The notes under the pieces are model-generated. The model was not told the origin of the DNA. It saw only the letters and a program-made list of their open reading frames with translations, and did no database searches. Of a stretch of DNA of 64,000 bases, positions 32,063 to 41,358 are shown piece after piece. Each line of letters begins with the position of its first letter. The first letter of the stretch is position 1. Location of the stretch: NCBI GenBank assembly GCA_010093705.1, contig MU006096.1, forward strand, positions 828,004 through 892,003. The letters run 5' to 3'. This DNA is from Patellaria atrata CBS 101060. Lineage: Eukaryota. The position numbers and the translations under genes are program-made.

Positions 32063-34461
32063 TCATTCAAAATTCTCATCCTTGAAGTTTTCATCTTTGA
32101 AAGCCGGCTCATCGTCATTAGTCCGCATGGGTGATAAGGCATTATTGTCCATCCCACCGAAAGGGGCCTGCCCACCTCCCAGTAAGCTCTTCCCGCGACG
32201 GCGAATGTTCATATTATCCCCAACTTCCTCAACAACTTCCTCCTCCTCTTCTTCCTCGACATCCTCCTCAGCTTCATCGTAACCTACTGCAGCACGCCTG
32301 CTTGCTGTGACGACTTCCCGGATGTCTTCTAGGAAAGCCTGGATCGCATCAAATGCTTTGACTCCGGAATCCGTAGCCTCAAGAGAGTTGTACTGCGCTG
32401 TTGCCTCGTTCAAGCAACGTTCTGCTTGCAAACTTTTGCCGAGCCGCAACCACTGGTCTGTAGCCATGACGTTCCAAAAAGCAGCCTTGCGTCGTCGGGA
32501 ACCCCAACCCATACTCCCTACGCCGGGACGGGATGAGTAGCAAGAACTCACGCGTTCCGTATATATCGGGAAGCCGATAGGGCCAACTAATCTGTTCTCG
32601 ATTATGCGAGTATTCCACTTTGCCGCTTGATCTGCGTTAGATGATCCTCTTATCCTGAGAAGCTCTGCTCCCAGGGTTAGCGCCCTAAGCGCGCTATAAG
32701 AGTCGCTACATCGTGTGGCATAAGAATAGTTCGCAGTTTCTAGCTGCTGATCTACATTTTCCACTTTACCTTTGGAAGAAGCGGACGGAGGAAGTAACAA
32801 CGAGCTTAAGGCCGTCATCTCATTCGCTCCAGCATAATGTTTCCATGCTTTATCGTTATTGAAATCAGTCCGTAACACGTCGTAAGTGCTTTGTGCTAGC
32901 TTGAAGTCTCGAAGCATGAACGCAAAGTCTCCTAGTCTTCTCATTATGGCCTCTGGAGTATCTGGGCGATAAAATCCATGTAAGGAATCATAGTTATTCC
33001 CCGTTGAACTTTGGCCTCCAACTGGGCTTGAAGAGTTTCTACTGCTAGATCCAAAAGGAGTCCATCGTTTAGAAAGAGACATGAATCGGCCGCTAATTCC
33101 CCGCCTCCTGGACGCAACCTGTTCATTCCATTGCGCGGATAAACGTTCCATCGTTGGTACGACTGACTGGACGACCAGCTCTCGTACAAAAGTCCTAATA
33201 GCTGTCATATCTGAGTCAATGAGACAAGGAGTGGGGTCTTCATCGTCTTCTGAATTTTCTATGTTCAGATCGACTTAGTACGTATCATTCAATTACCACA
33301 AGAACACTTACCGCGCTTTTGGATTTCCATTAACTCTTCGCCAGCAGATATCCACCCACACAACGGTAACTTTATACTATCATCATCAGTTGGCAAACAG
33401 CGAGTACTTTTTATTCGTAACAGATGACAATGGAGACCAAAGTGTCTTTTCATCTGTTCATAGAGTGTCTGCGACTGCGCAACGTCATCGTGATCCTCGT
33501 CGTGGACAAGAAGATAGTACCGTAGAAAGTCATTGCTAACCCACGGCGGCAACCTGAACTCACTATTCGTAGCTGTATATAATCGTCGAAGTTCCTCTAA
33601 AGCGTTTGGATTCCGCGAACTTATGGAAATCACACATGCGACAGGGTGAGAAAAGGTCTCATGAGGTGTAAGGGGTATACCGGAGAGAAGGCGTTTAACA
33701 TAATGGGTGAAGTAGGGTGATGCTGAGGATGACGGCTCTGGATCGGTTTGTTTACTGTTCAGGTAGTCTTCGGAGAAGGTTTGCGATTGGGATTCCGCAT
33801 AGCTAAGGTGGCGATCCACAACTTCTTCAACGTGACTTATGTCCCCACCCAATCGCGATAACGGGGATAAAACTTTCTGCGGCGGTTCCACAATACCATT
33901 GACAGTTGAAGGTCTTCGTTCAGTGCTTCGCCTGGGCGGCGATTTTAATATATTCAAGCTATCCCTTAGCCCTATGAACCGTACGCCATAATCATCAAAG
34001 CTCTTGCTTGCTCCTATACTATCCCTGATTGTAACTTTCCCGTGTATATTGTCCCCAAATGGTCTTAGTAGCTCTGCTAATCCGCCTTGAATACCCTTCT
34101 CTTGCATCAATTCCTCGGTATCACTTGAGGGAAGGACGTAGATAGTCGGGACAAGTGCACGCTGTACAAGGTTCCGGGGATCATCTGGGCTAGTGGAAGC
34201 TGGCGGACCTGGCGAGGCAGTTCTTCTAATACTGCCAGGTGGAAATATGGAAGAGGCTGTAAGTGTAGAGGTTGATGAATCTGAAGCAGGCCTTGGAAGA
34301 GTTGTGGAAGCGTACAGAGTGTCCAGCGATGGACTTGACCCTCGACGTCCAAGATTGATAGTAGAGCTTATAAGATCTTGCTTTCTTTTCGGCAGTATTA
34401 TCGACGAATCTGGATCTGAATAAGTTGGTGATTTAAGAGACGAAGCATCTTGAGAAGTCAT
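32063..34461 (-). CDS. TRS85: TRAPP III subunit Trs85/TRAPPC8
   Basis: PHETFSHPVACVISISS, LRYYLLVHDE, MKRHFGLHCHLLRI, RRLGDFAFMLRDF, DFNNDKAWKHYAGANEM; intron 33311-33259. Confidence 0.92.
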
Positions 34462-34787
34462 CAGGGCCTCCTCCGGCCGCAGCTCGGGTGCTGTAGGGTA
34501 TGCGCCGCCTCCTCGAATATCATGGATCGCCGGATAGATTGGTGAGGTATCCTTACACTCAATATTATCCAGAATGTGGGTCAGATGCGTGGTGTTATGC
34601 GATTGAGAATGTAGAGATATACGTAGTTTTTTGTTTGCGGCTTGCCCTCACATCGCAGGCCAAGGGGAGCCGCGGCGATGATCTGGTTCCGCATCCGAAC
34701 TTTTTGATATTTACAAACAAATCTACAAAAGTACAATCAGTATCATCGAGCAAAGGATAAAAGAGCAGCTTCTCATCAAACAGTTGA

Positions 34788-37700
34788 ATGACTCTAAATC
34801 ATCGAACTTTGTTGCAGAGAAGTTCATACAGGCTTTTCCTTCGCCCTGTCACTGTACCTGCTCCTTGGTCACCAAAAGCCTCGTCCGTTGACATTCTCAT
34901 TCGCCCTATCGAACGTCTAACCCTTCACCAAAGTCGGAACATTTCCAAAGCAAATGCGTCCTTCTCTTCAAAACTTGTGTTATCGTCTAATGGATCTTCG
35001 ATAAGACTGTGCCTCCGCTGTATGAATTCTGAACCTAAGGAACCAAGCCCCAAGAGGCGACGATTGCACACAGAGGCATTGACTGAAGAGCCTCATCAGT
35101 CACTGGACGAAGATACAATGTCTCCAGTACCTAGAGAAATCAAGCTAACTGCTACCGAGGAGAGGTTAAAACGTCTACTACTTGATGTTGCCGCTTACAT
35201 CGATGCTAATCCTACCTCAGCTTCTGTCGATGCACAGCTCCAGATCCCCAGCGAGCTCAACAGCTCGAAAGTAGAGCTACGATTTGCTGGGGGATGGGTG
35301 CGAGACAAATTACTGGGGGTGGGAAGCGTCGACATTGATGTTGCGATCAACAACATGACTGGCGAGCAATTCGCCTTGAGGATGAAAGAGTATATGGACA
35401 TCCCAGGTAACGCTGAGAAGTATAATCTTGAAGGTATCGGCACCTCTGATGACGCTGGCATGACCCAACAGAGTAAGTTTGTTGGTGGTCTTCATAAGAT
35501 CAAAGTGAACCCAGAGAAATCAAAGAATCTGGAAACTATCACGACAAAGATCTTTGGACTCGATATAGACCTTGTTAATCTCCGTAAGGAAACATATACT
35601 GAAGAGAGTCGTAATCCCCAAATGGAATTTGGAACGCCGGAAGAAGATGCATTACGACGCGATGCAACCATCAATGCCTTATTTTATAACCTGAACATCT
35701 CCACTGTCGAGGACTTTACTGAGCATGGCTTAAAAGATATGGAGCTAAAGATTATTCGGACGCCATTGGAACCCTATCAGACGTTCAAGGACGACCCACT
35801 ACGTGTGCTTAGACTTATACGATTCTCAAGTCGACTAGGTTATACGATTGACCCTCAGACCGAAGAAGCTATGGCCAATGAGGATATCAAGACTGCTTTG
35901 AAGTTGAAGATTACCCGAGAAAGGGTTGGCGTAGAACTTGAGAAGATGCTTCGTGGCCCTGATCCGTATGGGGCGTTGTCTCTCATTGATCGACTTGGGC
36001 TTTACGAAGTCATTTTTACGGACCCTACTCCCGAAGAAATTACTATCTCCCCAGAGACGACACGCTTCTCTGAAGCATATGCTGTGGCACAGGGACTGAA
36101 CCGACCCAGAGAGCCCTCTGGCCCACCTAAGGGGTTTGGGCCTCTTACCACCATCTCCTCAATCTTAGTCCGCGATAAAGAGGACTCTTACCTTACCTGG
36201 GTTCTGTCTGCTCTAGTTCCCTGGGCCGACGCTCCCAGACAAAATTTGAAACCAGGCAAATTAGCACCCCCGTTCGCTGTAGTGGCTGCACGAGAGGGAT
36301 TCAAAGCGCCTAATAAGGTTTGCGATGTCATTAGCTCTGCGATTAATAATCTTGAGGAAATCAGAGATTTAAAAGATAGGACATCAAAGATCGAGTTAAC
36401 CTACGGTAACGAATATGATCAGGAGAGAGTCGGTAGGGATGTCCTTGGTATGGCAGTCAGAAGATGGGGACCAACATGGCGTAATCAAGTCACTTTCGCC
36501 CTGATCTATGAACTTACCACTCCTGCGGATTTGGTAACCGAAGGCTTCGAAGAACGTATGTGTTTTCCTGCTTTCTGCACTATGGTTAAGCTAATACCAA
36601 ATAGGCACCTACAAGGGATATGCGTCTTTCCTCGCTCGTATTAAGGACCTTGATCTTTTAGAAGCATACAATTTCAAACATCTAGTCGATGGCAAACAGC
36701 TCGCATCTGCTCTCGGCATCCCCCCTGGCCCTTGGATGAAAAAGACTCTCGATCTGGTCATGTCATGGCAGTTGGCGCATCCCGAAGTCACTGATCCGGC
36801 CGCCGTCTTAGAGGAAATGAAAGCTCAACGTGACAGCGGTTCGCTGAATCTAAACGTGCCCCCGACTAAGGAGAAGAAAGATGGTCAAAAGGAGAAGGGT
36901 GCGAAGAAGGGTGAGCTAGCCCCTTATCTTGCCCTAAAGCTCCTCCACCTAACCGTCCGTCCCGCATTCCAGAAAAGCGGCCTCAGATCTGAGATCACCA
37001 AGCACGGTCGTCTAGACAAGCGCAGAAAACCGGGGATAAGGAAATATGAAGGGATAATGGAAGACGAAACTGAGAAAAAGCCATGGAAATCAACCGAGAA
37101 TAGATATATCCTCTCTATCTTGGACTGGTCCCTTCATGTGCTCTCCCCCGCCGAACTCGATGAAGCATGGCCCCTTCTCGTACCCCCAATCCTCAACATC
37201 CTCGATGACCACGATCCCGTGTATAAAGCTCGTGGCGCCGTCTTCCTTAATCTGCTCCTTAACATGACACCCCCATCCCTCCTCACCCGCACCGGTCTCG
37301 GCGAGGTCTTTGCAGACGCCCTTATCCCCCTATTCACATACCTTCCCTCCCTAACCCCCGAATCCCAATCCATCGAAGTCCTCAACGCCGCCTTCCCGGC
37401 CCTCCTCACCCTTTCTCGTCTCCGCTACCCCCGCACCATAGCCAAATTCCTCGACACTACGAACAAAGACCGCGAAAAGTTTCTCCATGTCATCATGCGC
37501 CGCGGTATCCTTTCCCCGCACGCTCATTGCAGGGATAATGTCAGGATCGCAGAAACGCTCCTTGACAATCTCCCTCCCTTGTTGCAGGAAATGGGCATCC
37601 TCAGCGTCAAACACCTCAAATCCACTCTGCCCATCTTGAGTACCACCCTCGCTGATCCGCTGGGGCCGGCGTATCCGCCCCTTCTTATCTCGGCCGCTAG

Positions 37701-38028
37701 AGCACTCAAATCTGTGATTATGAACGCGTGGCCGAGGATCCCGCAGTATAAAACTCCAGTGTTGAAGGGGCCTGTGCTGTGCTGGCTTAGGTGTCAGGAG
37801 GAGAGGAACGAGGGAAAGGTGTTGGAGGACGTGGAAAGAGAGTTGAAGGAGGTGATGGAGGTGTTTGGGGAAGCCATGAGGAAGGATAAGAAGTTTCCTG
37901 CTGAGGTCGCGGAGTTGGTGCAGGCGGATACGCGGTTGGGGGGTTTGGCGGGGAAGGAAGTGCCTTTTAGAACTGGCGTTGGTGCGGGTAAGGAAGGTGG
38001 GAGGAGCGAAGATGTGGTAGAGGTGTGA
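34788..38028 (+). CDS. CCA1: CCA tRNA nucleotidyltransferase fused to a C-terminal Tti2-like domain (1063 aa)
   Basis: RFAGGWVRDKLLG..DIDVA, DLVNLRKETY, EEDALRRDATINALFYN, DDPLRVLRLIRF. Intron 36556-36604 splices in frame into the ORF ending at 38028, which carries WPLLVPPILNILDD, TGLGEVF, YLPSLTPE and NAWPRI. Confidence 0.88.
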
Positions 38029-38649
38029 TTGATCGTGGGTGTGAGGTTGGGAAAATGTGTATTTGTATCGTTAATGTTGGTTATTCCCCTGAATTGTACT
38101 GGTTGGCGTTCCTCCACTGCTGCATGCTTGGTGGGTATGTAATGAATTCGAGTTGTACCTACAGTCTCCGATTCCGTGTAGTTCCATCCATCAGTACAGG
38201 ACAACCTCCCTCTTTCTATAGTCTACTTGATCTGTATCGTCCCTTGAATTTTCATATTCTCGTTGTACCGTACAGCACGGACATGGTATACCGTACGAGA
38301 AGACTATGCAGGAGGAAGGTTCATTCCAGGCTCAGCAGACCGTCGCGTATTCTTACTGTTTTCAGGAAAGTGTATGGTATTGGGCAAGCTTTACGGTATT
38401 GGGGAGCTGTACAATAATTGGGGTAATTATGCTATACTGTAATTAGAAAACTGTACGAGATGACCAGACTACCAAATAAGTATTTCTAAAATCTGCGTTG
38501 ATGTCCTATAGTCCCTATCGATGTACGCTATCATACCATGACTCGTAAAACTCGTCTCTGAAACGTGACGCACGAAACCCAGATCATAAATGCAAATAAA
38601 TATCCGCGACAACATATCCATACCACAACCCCATCTAGATTCCCTCCAT

Positions 38650-38749
38650 NNNNNNNNNNNNNNNNNNNNNNNNNNNNNNNNNNNNNNNNNNNNNNNNNNN
38701 NNNNNNNNNNNNNNNNNNNNNNNNNNNNNNNNNNNNNNNNNNNNNNNNN
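38650..38749. other. Assembly gap (100 N)
   Basis: Run of N; probably hides the 3' end of the adjacent HET gene. Confidence 1.
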
Positions 38750-40801
38750 CTCTCCCGTCGTCCCCCTCCGGGTCCTCCACCCCTCCACAACCTCCCCCTT
38801 CATGATCCCATGCACATAACACTCCCCCACCAAACTCCACTTGGCCTCCTTCCCCGTAACCCTGCGTAGCACAAACGGGACCTTCCCCCCAAACAGGACG
38901 ACGACCTTATCGTCCGGCCTCAGCACCTCAGGCCCGATACCAAAGTATCCCTTCGCGGTAACGAAAAAGCGACGCTGATCGCACGCCCACGCCGCGGCGC
39001 GGGAAAACGCCCCCGCGCTCCCATGCGCCGCCGCCGCGCGGAGGGAATCGAGATACGCCGCGTCCTCATCCCCGTCGGAGTCCGGGTGCGGCGAGACGGT
39101 GGAGGAGGCGCGGGACTTGTTACCAGGCTCGCAGGCCTGAAGCCAGTAGGCGGAGAAGTCGGCGGTGTGGTGGAGGACGTCTGGATCGGCGGGCTGCTGG
39201 CGGTCGTTGAGGCCGGCCGTCAGCGTGAGGCTGAAGACGCGGGTTTCGTTCTCCCGCGTCGGGTAGATGTGGTCGGGGGAGTGGGCGCCGCATTCTTTCC
39301 ACAGCGTAGCGACGGCGTGGGGTTTGTGGGTTGTGCGCCGGCGTGGGGGAGAGGTGGAAGAGGGGTGGATGGCGAAATCGCGGCTGCGGAGGGGCTTGCA
39401 GGCTTTGGTTATGGTGTCGAAGAGGAGGCCGCGAGTAATTAGGATGGACCAGGTGTCGGATTTGGTTGGGATGGGGGAGGAGGTGCCGGAGGCGGTGTAG
39501 TAGGATGATGAGGTGCCTAGGATATTGCAGTCGGAGTGCAGGTCCCAACGTGGGAGCCAGGAGGGGAAGTCGGCGTGGAGTTTGTCGTTGTGGGCGGTGC
39601 GTTGGACATGAGAGAGGAGGGCGAGGGATTTGGTTTGTGCGAGGAGTTTCACTGCGACTTCCCAGTAGATCTCGAGGACAGGTTTGGTGTAGTCGGGTTG
39701 AATCTGGCCAGGGGGTGTGGAAGCGCTAGGATGATCGAGGAGAGCGAAGACTTTGTCCCGCGGGTCGAAGGAGTTGTAATGGCGAGATCTTTGGAGAACG
39801 TCTAGGAAAGTGATATCGTCAGGTTCGACCCGGAAGCCTTGTGATAATTGTACGATGTTGTCGAGTCGTAACTGGTATTTTGCTTCTAATTGAGGAGCTT
39901 TTCTTATGATCCAAGATGCGGATATCACCAGCTCTCTCCAGTCGACTGCATAGTCTCCACACATTATTTCTGCTGACGACGCAACACCGATCTGTCGAAT
40001 GATAAAGATATCGTTAAACCACGCTCGACATAACAGATTAGACAACGCGTTCCATTTATGATCATCCGCGCGTGTAAGTTGATCTGGCGTTATCTCAGGA
40101 ATAGACTGAGTTGTCCTCTTCTTCTTCCCCTTCCCCTGAACCAAATCCAAGAAATGCGCATTCAACTCTTTGATCAATCCAAAAGCTAAATCCGCATCGT
40201 CATCCTCATTCTCACCCAACCAAACTAGCACATCGTCCGCATGGGTAAAGATATCCCCCATCAACATCATCTGCTGGCCCCTTTCTTTATCGTTTTTCTG
40301 ATCCATGCACACCTGATCCACCCACAGCATACGCGGTCTATTTTGCAGCCTAACCCTCTGCAAAGCAGCATACAAGTTCATCGACACTTCCAAGCTCTTC
40401 CCATTACACACCACTTCCTCCGCGTCTCTTGGCTCATCCGAGACATACGACACGGCCTCATACGGCGGTGCCCGATCAAGCTTAGCAAACCGTAACCTTC
40501 CAACAACCGGCTGCACACCCGCCCCTGGGTGCAGCTCAAACAGCCTAATCGTTCTTTCGTTAGGGAGCGGCTCAAACTGGTAACTATGGCCAGAGAGTCC
40601 GAAAAGCTTGAGCAAGCCCCCAATAAACATCATAGAAAATCCCAGAGATGCAATCGCGAACCCTATAGCCATCTGTGTGACGCCTATTAATATGATTTTG
40701 AGCCCCGGAAGCTTGTCCGACAAGTTGACCAGTGTTTCCAGGTCTTTGGTCCATCCTAAGGACGCATCGGCCAAATTCATGAAGGCCAGGTGGTCTTCCA
40801 T
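38750..40801 (-). CDS. HET-domain protein (HET-6-like); 3' end falls in the gap
   Basis: IRLFELHPG, YEAVSYV, LWVDQVCMDQ, DPRDKVFALL, PSWLPRW, RRFFVTAKGYFGIGP, GGKVPFVLR, LVGECYVHGIMKGE. Confidence 0.9.
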
Positions 40802-41358
40802 ATTGTTATGGAGGAAGAAGGTCTTCTACCTTCAGAATCTTTCATGAGGTAGAGGAATAAGCTGAAGTTCGTGTGCGTTACGCAGGCTTACCTTGTGCCT
40901 CGAAATGGCAAAATGTTGATATTAACAGAGACATAGATTGTTCATTACTTCTCGTTTAAGAGTATTTAAACATAAGCAACCAAAGGTATAGTTTCGCTAA
41001 GGATATAAAATTCCCCAAAACACACAACTAGGGAGAACCGGGTTTTTTACGTGGTCAAGCAGCCAGCAGTTCCAGAAATAGAACCAGGGAAACCTGAAAC
41101 TTCCGAGATATTACCGCGACCAAGGAAGTCAAGACACGCGACCATACCGTATGATTCAGATCTCAACATAATGGTCATCCGTTCTTTTACTCGGTGGACA
41201 TTTACATCTGATATTGACAATAATGCTTTTGTAATAGTAAGCTACCCTATTATCATATTAGGAAATTTCATCTCAACACCAGTATCACTTCTAACGCGAT
41301 ATTTACCAGGAGCCAGGTACCCATCTCTATACATACGGGGAAAATTGTTACAGCAGCC

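Follow-up and report, generated by a model that had tools for sequence, protein, structure and literature searches.

Eukaryotic class II CCA-adding enzymes, such as yeast Cca1, S. pombe cca1/cca2, and human TRNT1, share a head, RNA-binding domains, and a full body and tail. Tti2 (PF10521), represented by S. cerevisiae Tti2 and by human TTI2 in structures 7f4u, 7ole, and 9wjy, is the small subunit of a co-chaperone, Tel2-Tti1-Tti2 (TTT), that brings kinases of the TOR, ATM, and ATR types (PIKKs) to maturity. In the 64,000-nt stretch of Patellaria atrata CBS 101060 analyzed here (the window; contig MU006096.1 of assembly GCA_010093705.1, positions 828,004 to 892,003 of the forward strand), a single two-exon gene on the + strand (34788–38028) encodes a CCA-adding enzyme, a linker, and a Tti2 core in one frame. 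Its enzyme half has the same domains as the described class II enzymes, but their natural C-terminus (6–10 residues and a stop) is replaced by a 372-residue HEAT-like module. The Tti2 half shares core sequence, fold, and motifs with known Tti2 proteins, but is covalently joined to another enzyme and lacks both profile positions 1–41 and the stretch before the Pfam domain. The explanation that best accounts for these data overall, and which we consider likely, is a deletion-born bifunctional protein that combines a CCA enzyme with its lineage's only Tti2.

Two + strand open frames (34788–36644 and 36595–38028) are bridged by a 49-nt intron at 36556–36604 with canonical signals (donor GTATGT, branch-like site CTAAT, acceptor TAG). 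Splicing restores the frame and joins exon 1 (34788–36555) to exon 2 (36605–38028) in a coding sequence of 1768 + 1421 nt, or 1063 codons counted from the first ATG at 34788, which is immediately preceded by a TGA; the closing TGA occupies 38026–38028. The intron and the 1063-residue frame had been proposed in an earlier reading made from the letters alone (the sequence-only reading), and both agree with the public protein P0019 (P. atrata CBS 101060, Dothideomycetes, 953 aa), which starts at Met111 of the longer frame, has the same splice junction (FEER/TYKGY), and is 99% identical across the entire second exon. The stop-to-stop frame, Pfam matches, and relatives in the Protein Data Bank (PDB) place an N-terminal extension and the head, neck, and body of the CCA enzyme in exon 1. 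Exon 2 is a single stop-free frame that holds the enzyme's C-terminal tail (36610–36831), a Lys-rich linker (36832–36909), and the Tti2 core (36910–38025) up to the TGA. Contigs from two DNA runs span 34400–38500 with no differences and no indels relative to the window; these contigs are not independent, because the runs are probably the data behind the assembly. At 37583–37675, inside the Tti2 core, the long contig of run X2 fragments into short, low-depth contigs, some with 1–3 differing letters that may reflect minor heterogeneity or read errors; the other run crosses this region cleanly. A possible second intron within the linker (GTGAGC at 36911, AG at 36939) was rejected, being only 29 nt long and not a multiple of three, with homologues aligning straight through it.

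Judged from its sequence, the first half of the protein is a complete class II tRNA nucleotidyltransferase and the CCA1 orthologue; the sequence-only reading had likewise named a CCA-adding enzyme. The PolyA_pol head domain (PF01743; 35277–35759) scores 82.4 bits against a gathering cut-off of 23, with residues 54–214 of P0019 covering positions 1–126 of the 126-position profile, and PolyA_pol_RNAbd (PF12627; 35838–36017, residues 351–410) scores 33.6 bits against a cut-off of 22. Among solved structures, this half matches the fungal-type tRNA nucleotidyltransferases 9kma_A (E 2.3e-63) and 9ns2_A ("tRNA nucleotidyltransferase cca1"; E 4.4e-63), as well as human TRNT1 (4x4w; E 1.7e-14). The motifs for catalysis and templating in class II enzymes include motif A (GGxVRD...DxD), motif B (RRD), and motif D ([ED]DxxR). 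The window protein carries GGWVRDKLL...DIDVA and RRDAT, with the GGWVRD...DIDVA and RRD elements lying in the head domain, together with DDPLR; all are invariant in 15/15 fused proteins, across which the CCA core has 125 invariant columns (GGWVRDKLL, DIDVA, and RRD among them). The C-terminal tail (P0019 residues 482–555) is also complete, matching positions 2–75 of a 76-position tail hidden Markov model (HMM), and it ends where stand-alone CCA1 proteins end, these stopping 6–10 residues further on.

The second half is, by the same kind of evidence, a conserved Tti2 core. An HMM scan of the spliced protein returned Tti2 (PF10521) alongside PolyA_pol, at 228.1 bits (E 2.1e-67; cut-off 25.2) over profile positions 42–278 of 279. 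As a single sequence, the last 372 residues match human TTI2 residues 203–451 (E 1.5e-5), and a profile search recovers human TTI2 residues 217–438 (E 8e-11); for the human TTI2 chains 9wjy_B, 7f4u_C, and 7ole_J, E values lie between 1e-5 and 8e-5 in the single-sequence search and between 8e-14 and 8e-11 in the profile search. A predicted model of the protein in the ESM Atlas (pTM 0.58, pLDDT 0.76) aligns over residues 583–932 to a Tti2 cluster (TM 0.87) and to a chordate TTI2 cluster (TM 0.71). The core has 22 invariant columns among the 15 fused proteins, and its KPWK, LLVPPIL..DD, YLPSLTPE, SVKHL, and NAWPR motifs are common to stand-alone fungal Tti2. The Tti2-like identity proposed from the letters alone is thus borne out by Pfam, by the human matches, and by predicted fold; its extent, given earlier as about 370 residues after a Lys-rich linker, is corrected to 372 residues (36910–38025), and the linker, though present, is atypical among relatives.

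The sequence-only reading also noted that the Tti2 part appeared to lack its N-terminus, and three lines of evidence agree that about 190 residues are gone. In stand-alone Tti2 proteins of Pezizomycotina, the Pfam match runs from profile position 1–2 to 279 and begins at their own residue 150–170, whereas in fused proteins it begins at profile position 15–42. Homology between the window protein and the stand-alone Tti2 of Piccolia starts at Piccolia residue 192. Finally, an HMM of the N-terminal region (Tti2-N; 49 sequences, 190 positions) found no match at E <= 10 in the fused proteins that lack this region, in the six frames of the 64-kb window, or in any fused locus including up to 6 kb of flank. 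The N-terminal helical region of ~150–200 residues that lies before and extends into the Pfam domain of a full-length Tti2 is therefore missing; apart from this shortfall, each half is an ordinary member of a known family. A human study reports that GST-TTI2(1-193) co-purified TTI1, whereas GST-TTI2(194-508) did not pull it down but was largely insoluble (Pal et al. 2021, PMC8278493); the TTI1-binding 1-193 fragment is the counterpart of the ~190 residues lost here. For yeast Tti2, Hoffman et al. (PMC4889661) state that only short C-terminal truncations are viable, those from the N-terminus not being so. Fused lineages have either dispensed with a part considered necessary elsewhere, or they supply it otherwise.

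The sequence-only reading proposed an in-frame fusion and allowed that the architecture might already sit in databases of related fungi; both expectations hold, the fusion being present in the DNA of many independent sequences. When the 372-residue Tti2 part was run by HMMER against 1.84 billion representative proteins, 919 matches reached E <= 0.001, of which the best 150 clusters (50% identity) were classified with HMMs of the CCA core, CCA tail, Tti2 core, and Tti2-N. Among these best 150 of 919, 13 have CCA core, tail, and Tti2 core; 38 have CCA tail and Tti2 core in records cut at the N-terminus; 47 are stand-alone Tti2 with at least 150 residues of their own N-terminus; 29 lack a CCA tail and have a shorter N-terminus (with a partial Tti2-N in 18); and 23 are fragments. 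Two of the 13, from Helicocarpus and a Fusarium species, also carry Tti2-N. CCA sequence joined to a Tti2 core without Tti2-N is thus found in 49 of the 150 clusters, with a tail-to-core spacing of 1–49 residues. Longer relatives found through the second exon all carry PF01743 and PF10521 (15/15), and the ESM Atlas holds a fused cluster of 62 members. Metagenomes scanned with the patterns YLP[ST]LTPEx[DEQ] and WMKxALD[VI]V yielded 111 confirmed stretches, from which the best 80 were kept as loci. CCA tail and Tti2 core share one stop-free frame in 66 of the 80 (50 groups at 95% identity, 34 at 80%), with a spacing of 1–15 residues (median 4); six of the remaining loci start inside the Tti2 core and are uninformative. 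In one locus alone (L048, a contig of 1197 nt) do tail and core lie in different frames, which may reflect a sequencing error, a small intron, or a decayed copy. The 26-residue Lys-rich linker of the window is not conserved, most relatives having only 1–15 residues there, and on this comparison it is a peculiarity of the window's lineage.

Surveyed across fungi, named fused proteins come from 15 genera of Dothideomycetes (among them Patellaria, Diplodia, Viridothelium, Trypethelium, Tothia, Clohesyomyces, Friedmanniomyces, Dothidotthia, Parastagonospora, Lentithecium, Salinomyces, Eremomyces, Trichodelitschia, and Piedraia), from two of Arthoniomycetes (Coniocarpon and Chrysothrix), and from one metagenome-assembled genome (MAG) of the Candelariomycete Pycnora praestabilis. 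Tti2 with its own N-terminus occurs in Lecanoromycetes, Sordariomycetes, Eurotiomycetes (Ajellomycetaceae), Pezizomycetes, Orbiliomycetes, Leotiomycetes, Geoglossomycetes, and Saitoella, as well as in Chaenotheca, Vezdaea, Cirrosporium, and Piccolia. Taxonomy was looked up for Pycnora, Patellaria, Piccolia, Coniocarpon, Chrysothrix, Eremomyces, Viridothelium, and Tothia; several of the other genera listed are placed in the classes to which we take them to belong. Among 18 near-length matches and the named representatives looked up, no named Tti2 with its own N-terminus came from Dothideomycetes, from Arthoniomycetes, or from Pycnora's class. The best named match was a Dothideomycete for 65 and an Arthoniomycete for 8 of the 73 non-tandem metagenome loci. 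A tree of Tti2 cores (129 rows, 65 fused and 64 with Tti2-N, leaving out rows with fewer than 300 HMM positions, unclassifiable rows, and 12 near-duplicates) requires only 2 changes of the fused/unfused label, against a shuffled mean of 43.5, with 0/500 shuffles as low. Forcing all 65 fused rows into one clade gives a likelihood 16 units above that of the free quick tree (p-AU 0.656), and a single origin of the fusion is compatible with the data, though not proven by them.

Stand-alone TTI2 genes in other ascomycetes offer a view of what may have preceded the fusion. Six metagenome loci (L044, L061, L063, L071, L076, and L080; 4 groups at 95% identity) have Tti2-N, a Tti2 core, and enough upstream DNA to be informative, and in each of them a complete CCA1 directly precedes TTI2 on that strand. 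Since these loci were picked through the Tti2 pattern, the presence of CCA1 was not built into the search. At each, CCA1 stops 6–10 residues past its tail, and the first detectable Tti2-N exon follows 460–1080 nt later; their best named matches are Lecanoromycete-like (3), Sordariomycete-like (2), and Geoglossomycete-like (1). In Teloschistes chrysophthalmus, too, the locus tags of CCA1 (525 aa) and Tti2 (532 aa) are consecutive, while a second annotation of this species merges both into 1070 residues. A merged Helicocarpus model of 1236 residues retains Tti2-N at residues 636–818 (E 1.3e-31), and close relatives of Helicocarpus have stand-alone Tti2 of 575–615 residues. More generally, P0118 (Helicocarpus), P0177 (Fusarium sp.), and P0185 (Teloschistes) combine CCA1 with a complete or partial full-length Tti2, though relatives have two genes; these are probably annotation merges of close tandem neighbors, genuine read-through fusions being the alternative.

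The tandem CCA1-TTI2 pair of other Pezizomycotina (Teloschistes; L044, L061, L063, and L076) has the same order and strand as the fusion, and its tail and core are orthologous. It differs in having a stop and 460–1080 nt between the genes, in keeping Tti2-N, and in the two introns, near HMM positions 78 and 237, that split the Tti2 core at the six loci. At all fused loci the core reads through as one frame without a break, and the fusion lineage is thus also without those introns. The simplest history suggested by these comparisons is that the fusion arose by deletion from ancestral same-strand CCA1-TTI2 neighbors. Since other ascomycete classes have CCA1 in tandem with full-length TTI2, the deletion would also have removed ~190 N-terminal residues of Tti2. 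One ancient event in the ancestor of the fused lineages would have taken the last 6–10 CCA1 codons and the stop, the intergenic spacer, and the first ~190 TTI2 codons, joining two essential genes.

Conservation of both halves (125 + 22 invariant columns) indicates that both are under purifying selection, which is why we take the product to be bifunctional. The N-terminal half would add CCA to tRNAs, and the C-terminal half would serve as the lineage's only Tti2 in the TTT complex. Because the TTI1-binding fragment has been lost, contact with Tti1 must use another route, which would be the retained core, the helical body and tail of the CCA half, or a piece of Tti2-N supplied by a gene at another place. 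Most species have hardly any linker, which suggests that the final helix of the CCA tail leads almost straight into the opening helix of the Tti2 core, and we infer that the helical body and tail of the enzyme may structurally replace Tti2-N.

It is exceedingly improbable that two neighboring genes were misread as one through a missed stop, an indel, or a false intron. Such merging does happen in other classes, as the models from Helicocarpus, from the Fusarium species (1001 aa), and from Teloschistes, where the joined model exists alongside the split ones, make plain. Here, however, a single exon carries tail, linker, and Tti2 core with no break in the frame, the DNA contigs show no differences, and the 66 of 80 loci and 49 clusters repeat the arrangement in uninterrupted frames with 1–49 residues of spacing. 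A gap of 1–15 residues from one domain to the next is too short to hold a stop, a spacer, and a start; an artifact is contradicted by the data and excluded. A real fusion gene could nonetheless yield two proteins, if an internal start of transcription or translation (for example at a Met of the CCA tail) or cleavage in the linker freed the Tti2 core; the cell would then keep the two functions on different polypeptides. We regard this as unlikely. The window's linker, being 26 residues long, Lys-rich, and non-conserved, speaks for such a product, but the 1–15 residues found in most relatives leave little room for a cleavable linker. A Met at tail position 44 is present in 55/58 fused proteins compared with 5/10 stand-alone CCA1 tails; its neighbors, however, are equally conserved (W43 58/58, A47 55/58, L48 57/58) and three of the 58 lack it, so this Met is not singled out. 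An internal start at the tail Met codons was rejected, as their conservation is no higher than that of adjacent residues. Nor is there a conserved Met at the start of the Tti2 core, and any released product would still be without Tti2-N.

Alternatively, the appended core may not be the working Tti2 at all but a relic or a re-purposed domain, if the genome encodes, at another locus, a full-length TTI2 or a separate Tti2-N that completes the core. The need for Tti2-N in yeast (PMC4889661) and its binding of TTI1 in human (PMC8278493) speak for this possibility. Yet the core is strongly conserved (228 bits; 22 invariant columns), it branches in the Tti2-core tree where the orthologue of its class is expected, no stand-alone Dothideomycete or Arthoniomycete Tti2 appeared among the 18 near-length matches or named representatives, and the Tti2-N HMM drew a blank on every fused locus and its flanks. 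Taken together, we find this quite unlikely.

Several observations nevertheless weigh against a deletion-born bifunctional protein of single origin. Both runs that cover the locus are DNA, and their contigs show no splice joints. Given the human TTI1-binding and yeast truncation data, a Tti2 without its N-terminus may not work alone. The protein search with Tti2-N (Helicocarpus residues 630–822, shorter lengths) reached only close relatives of its query, returning 5 matches (4 stand-alone Ajellomycetaceae Tti2 and one 164-residue fragment), and has no power for Dothideomycetes. In the free Tti2-core tree, Pycnora pairs with the unfused protein of a Geoglossomycete (Glutinoglossum) with a support of 89, which makes a second origin possible. 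A tree of CCA cores (29 rows) lacks resolution at depth; it shows 3 label changes, of which the starred branches force only 1.

A further step beyond the bifunctional protein would be functional coupling: the TTT co-chaperone of Dothideomycetes and Arthoniomycetes would physically contain the CCA enzyme, whose helical body and tail, lying 1–15 residues from the first helix of the Tti2 core, would have taken over Tti1/RUVBL docking from the lost N-terminus, directly linking tRNA 3′-end maturation or tRNA status to the biogenesis of TOR and the other PIKKs. We hold this to be doubtful. If true, the tandem CCA1-TTI2 order that other classes of ascomycetes have kept would already have hinted at this link in function. 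On the other hand, a fusion formed by the joining of neighbors could be neutral.

The N-terminal extension (34788–35117; 110 aa), which is absent from the public 953-residue model, begins with an Arg-rich stretch followed by an SP-KRR(R/K) motif. In-frame ATGs lie at 34788 (Met1), 35022 (Met79), and 35118 (Met111), with an A at the -3 position of Met111 and a T (weak) at those of Met1 and Met79. In the alignment, K89, R90, and R91 are invariant and a Met aligns to Met111 in 7/7 sequences that reach that far, and long Arg-rich leaders are also present in proteins of three other species (P0029, P0032, and P0183). These patterns suggest that the 110 residues upstream of Met111 are probably coding and that the gene probably has several in-frame starts. 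Yeast CCA1 uses several in-frame starts to make mitochondrial and nucleo-cytosolic forms. Multiple starts with a leader are a point of likeness between the two genes. By analogy with yeast, alternative starts at Met1, Met79, and Met111 probably give rise to mitochondrial and nuclear/cytosolic forms, a targeting role that we infer.

Public databases contain the fused architecture under names that say little or describe one half only (CCA or poly(A) polymerase-like), P0019 itself being called "poly A polymerase C-terminal region-like protein". A literature search on fusions of Tti2 and a CCA-adding enzyme found no paper describing one (the single paper listed for both subjects is a mouse neuroanatomy study on another matter), in keeping with the remark in the sequence-only reading that no functional description was known. 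Among JGI entries, P0015 (398 aa) has only a Tti2 domain and no CCA tail, yet it is named "tRNA nucleotidyltransferase (CCA-adding enzyme)", apparently a name inherited from the annotation of fused relatives; P0013, although named likewise, is a piece of a fused gene (partial CCA tail and Tti2 core). In practical terms, the fusion has already caused wrong database names, with stand-alone Tti2 proteins called "tRNA nucleotidyltransferase".

Of the subunits of the essential TTT co-chaperone, Tti2 is understood least, and the fused lineage amounts to a natural, class-wide deletion of a region that reportedly binds TTI1 in human and cannot be spared in yeast, together with a permanent fusion to an essential enzyme of unrelated function. 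The requirement for Tti2-N, its replacement here, and a link between tRNA maturation and PIKK biogenesis are thereby made testable. The junction is in addition a rare genomic change common to Dothideomycetes, Arthoniomycetes, and Pycnora, which makes it a possible marker for placing Candelariomycetes, whose position is disputed.

Scans around the gene for Rfam families and for tRNAs gave no match. Downstream, a HET-domain (heterokaryon incompatibility) gene lies on the - strand at 38531–40825 (PF06985, E 5.3e-23), its 3′ part interrupted by an assembly gap of 100 N at 38650–38749. The upstream neighbor is a divergent TRAPP Trs85-like gene at 33289–34647 on the - strand (PF12739, E 1.6e-65), and the ~330 bp between its first Met and the CCA1 ATG suggest a shared bidirectional promoter region.

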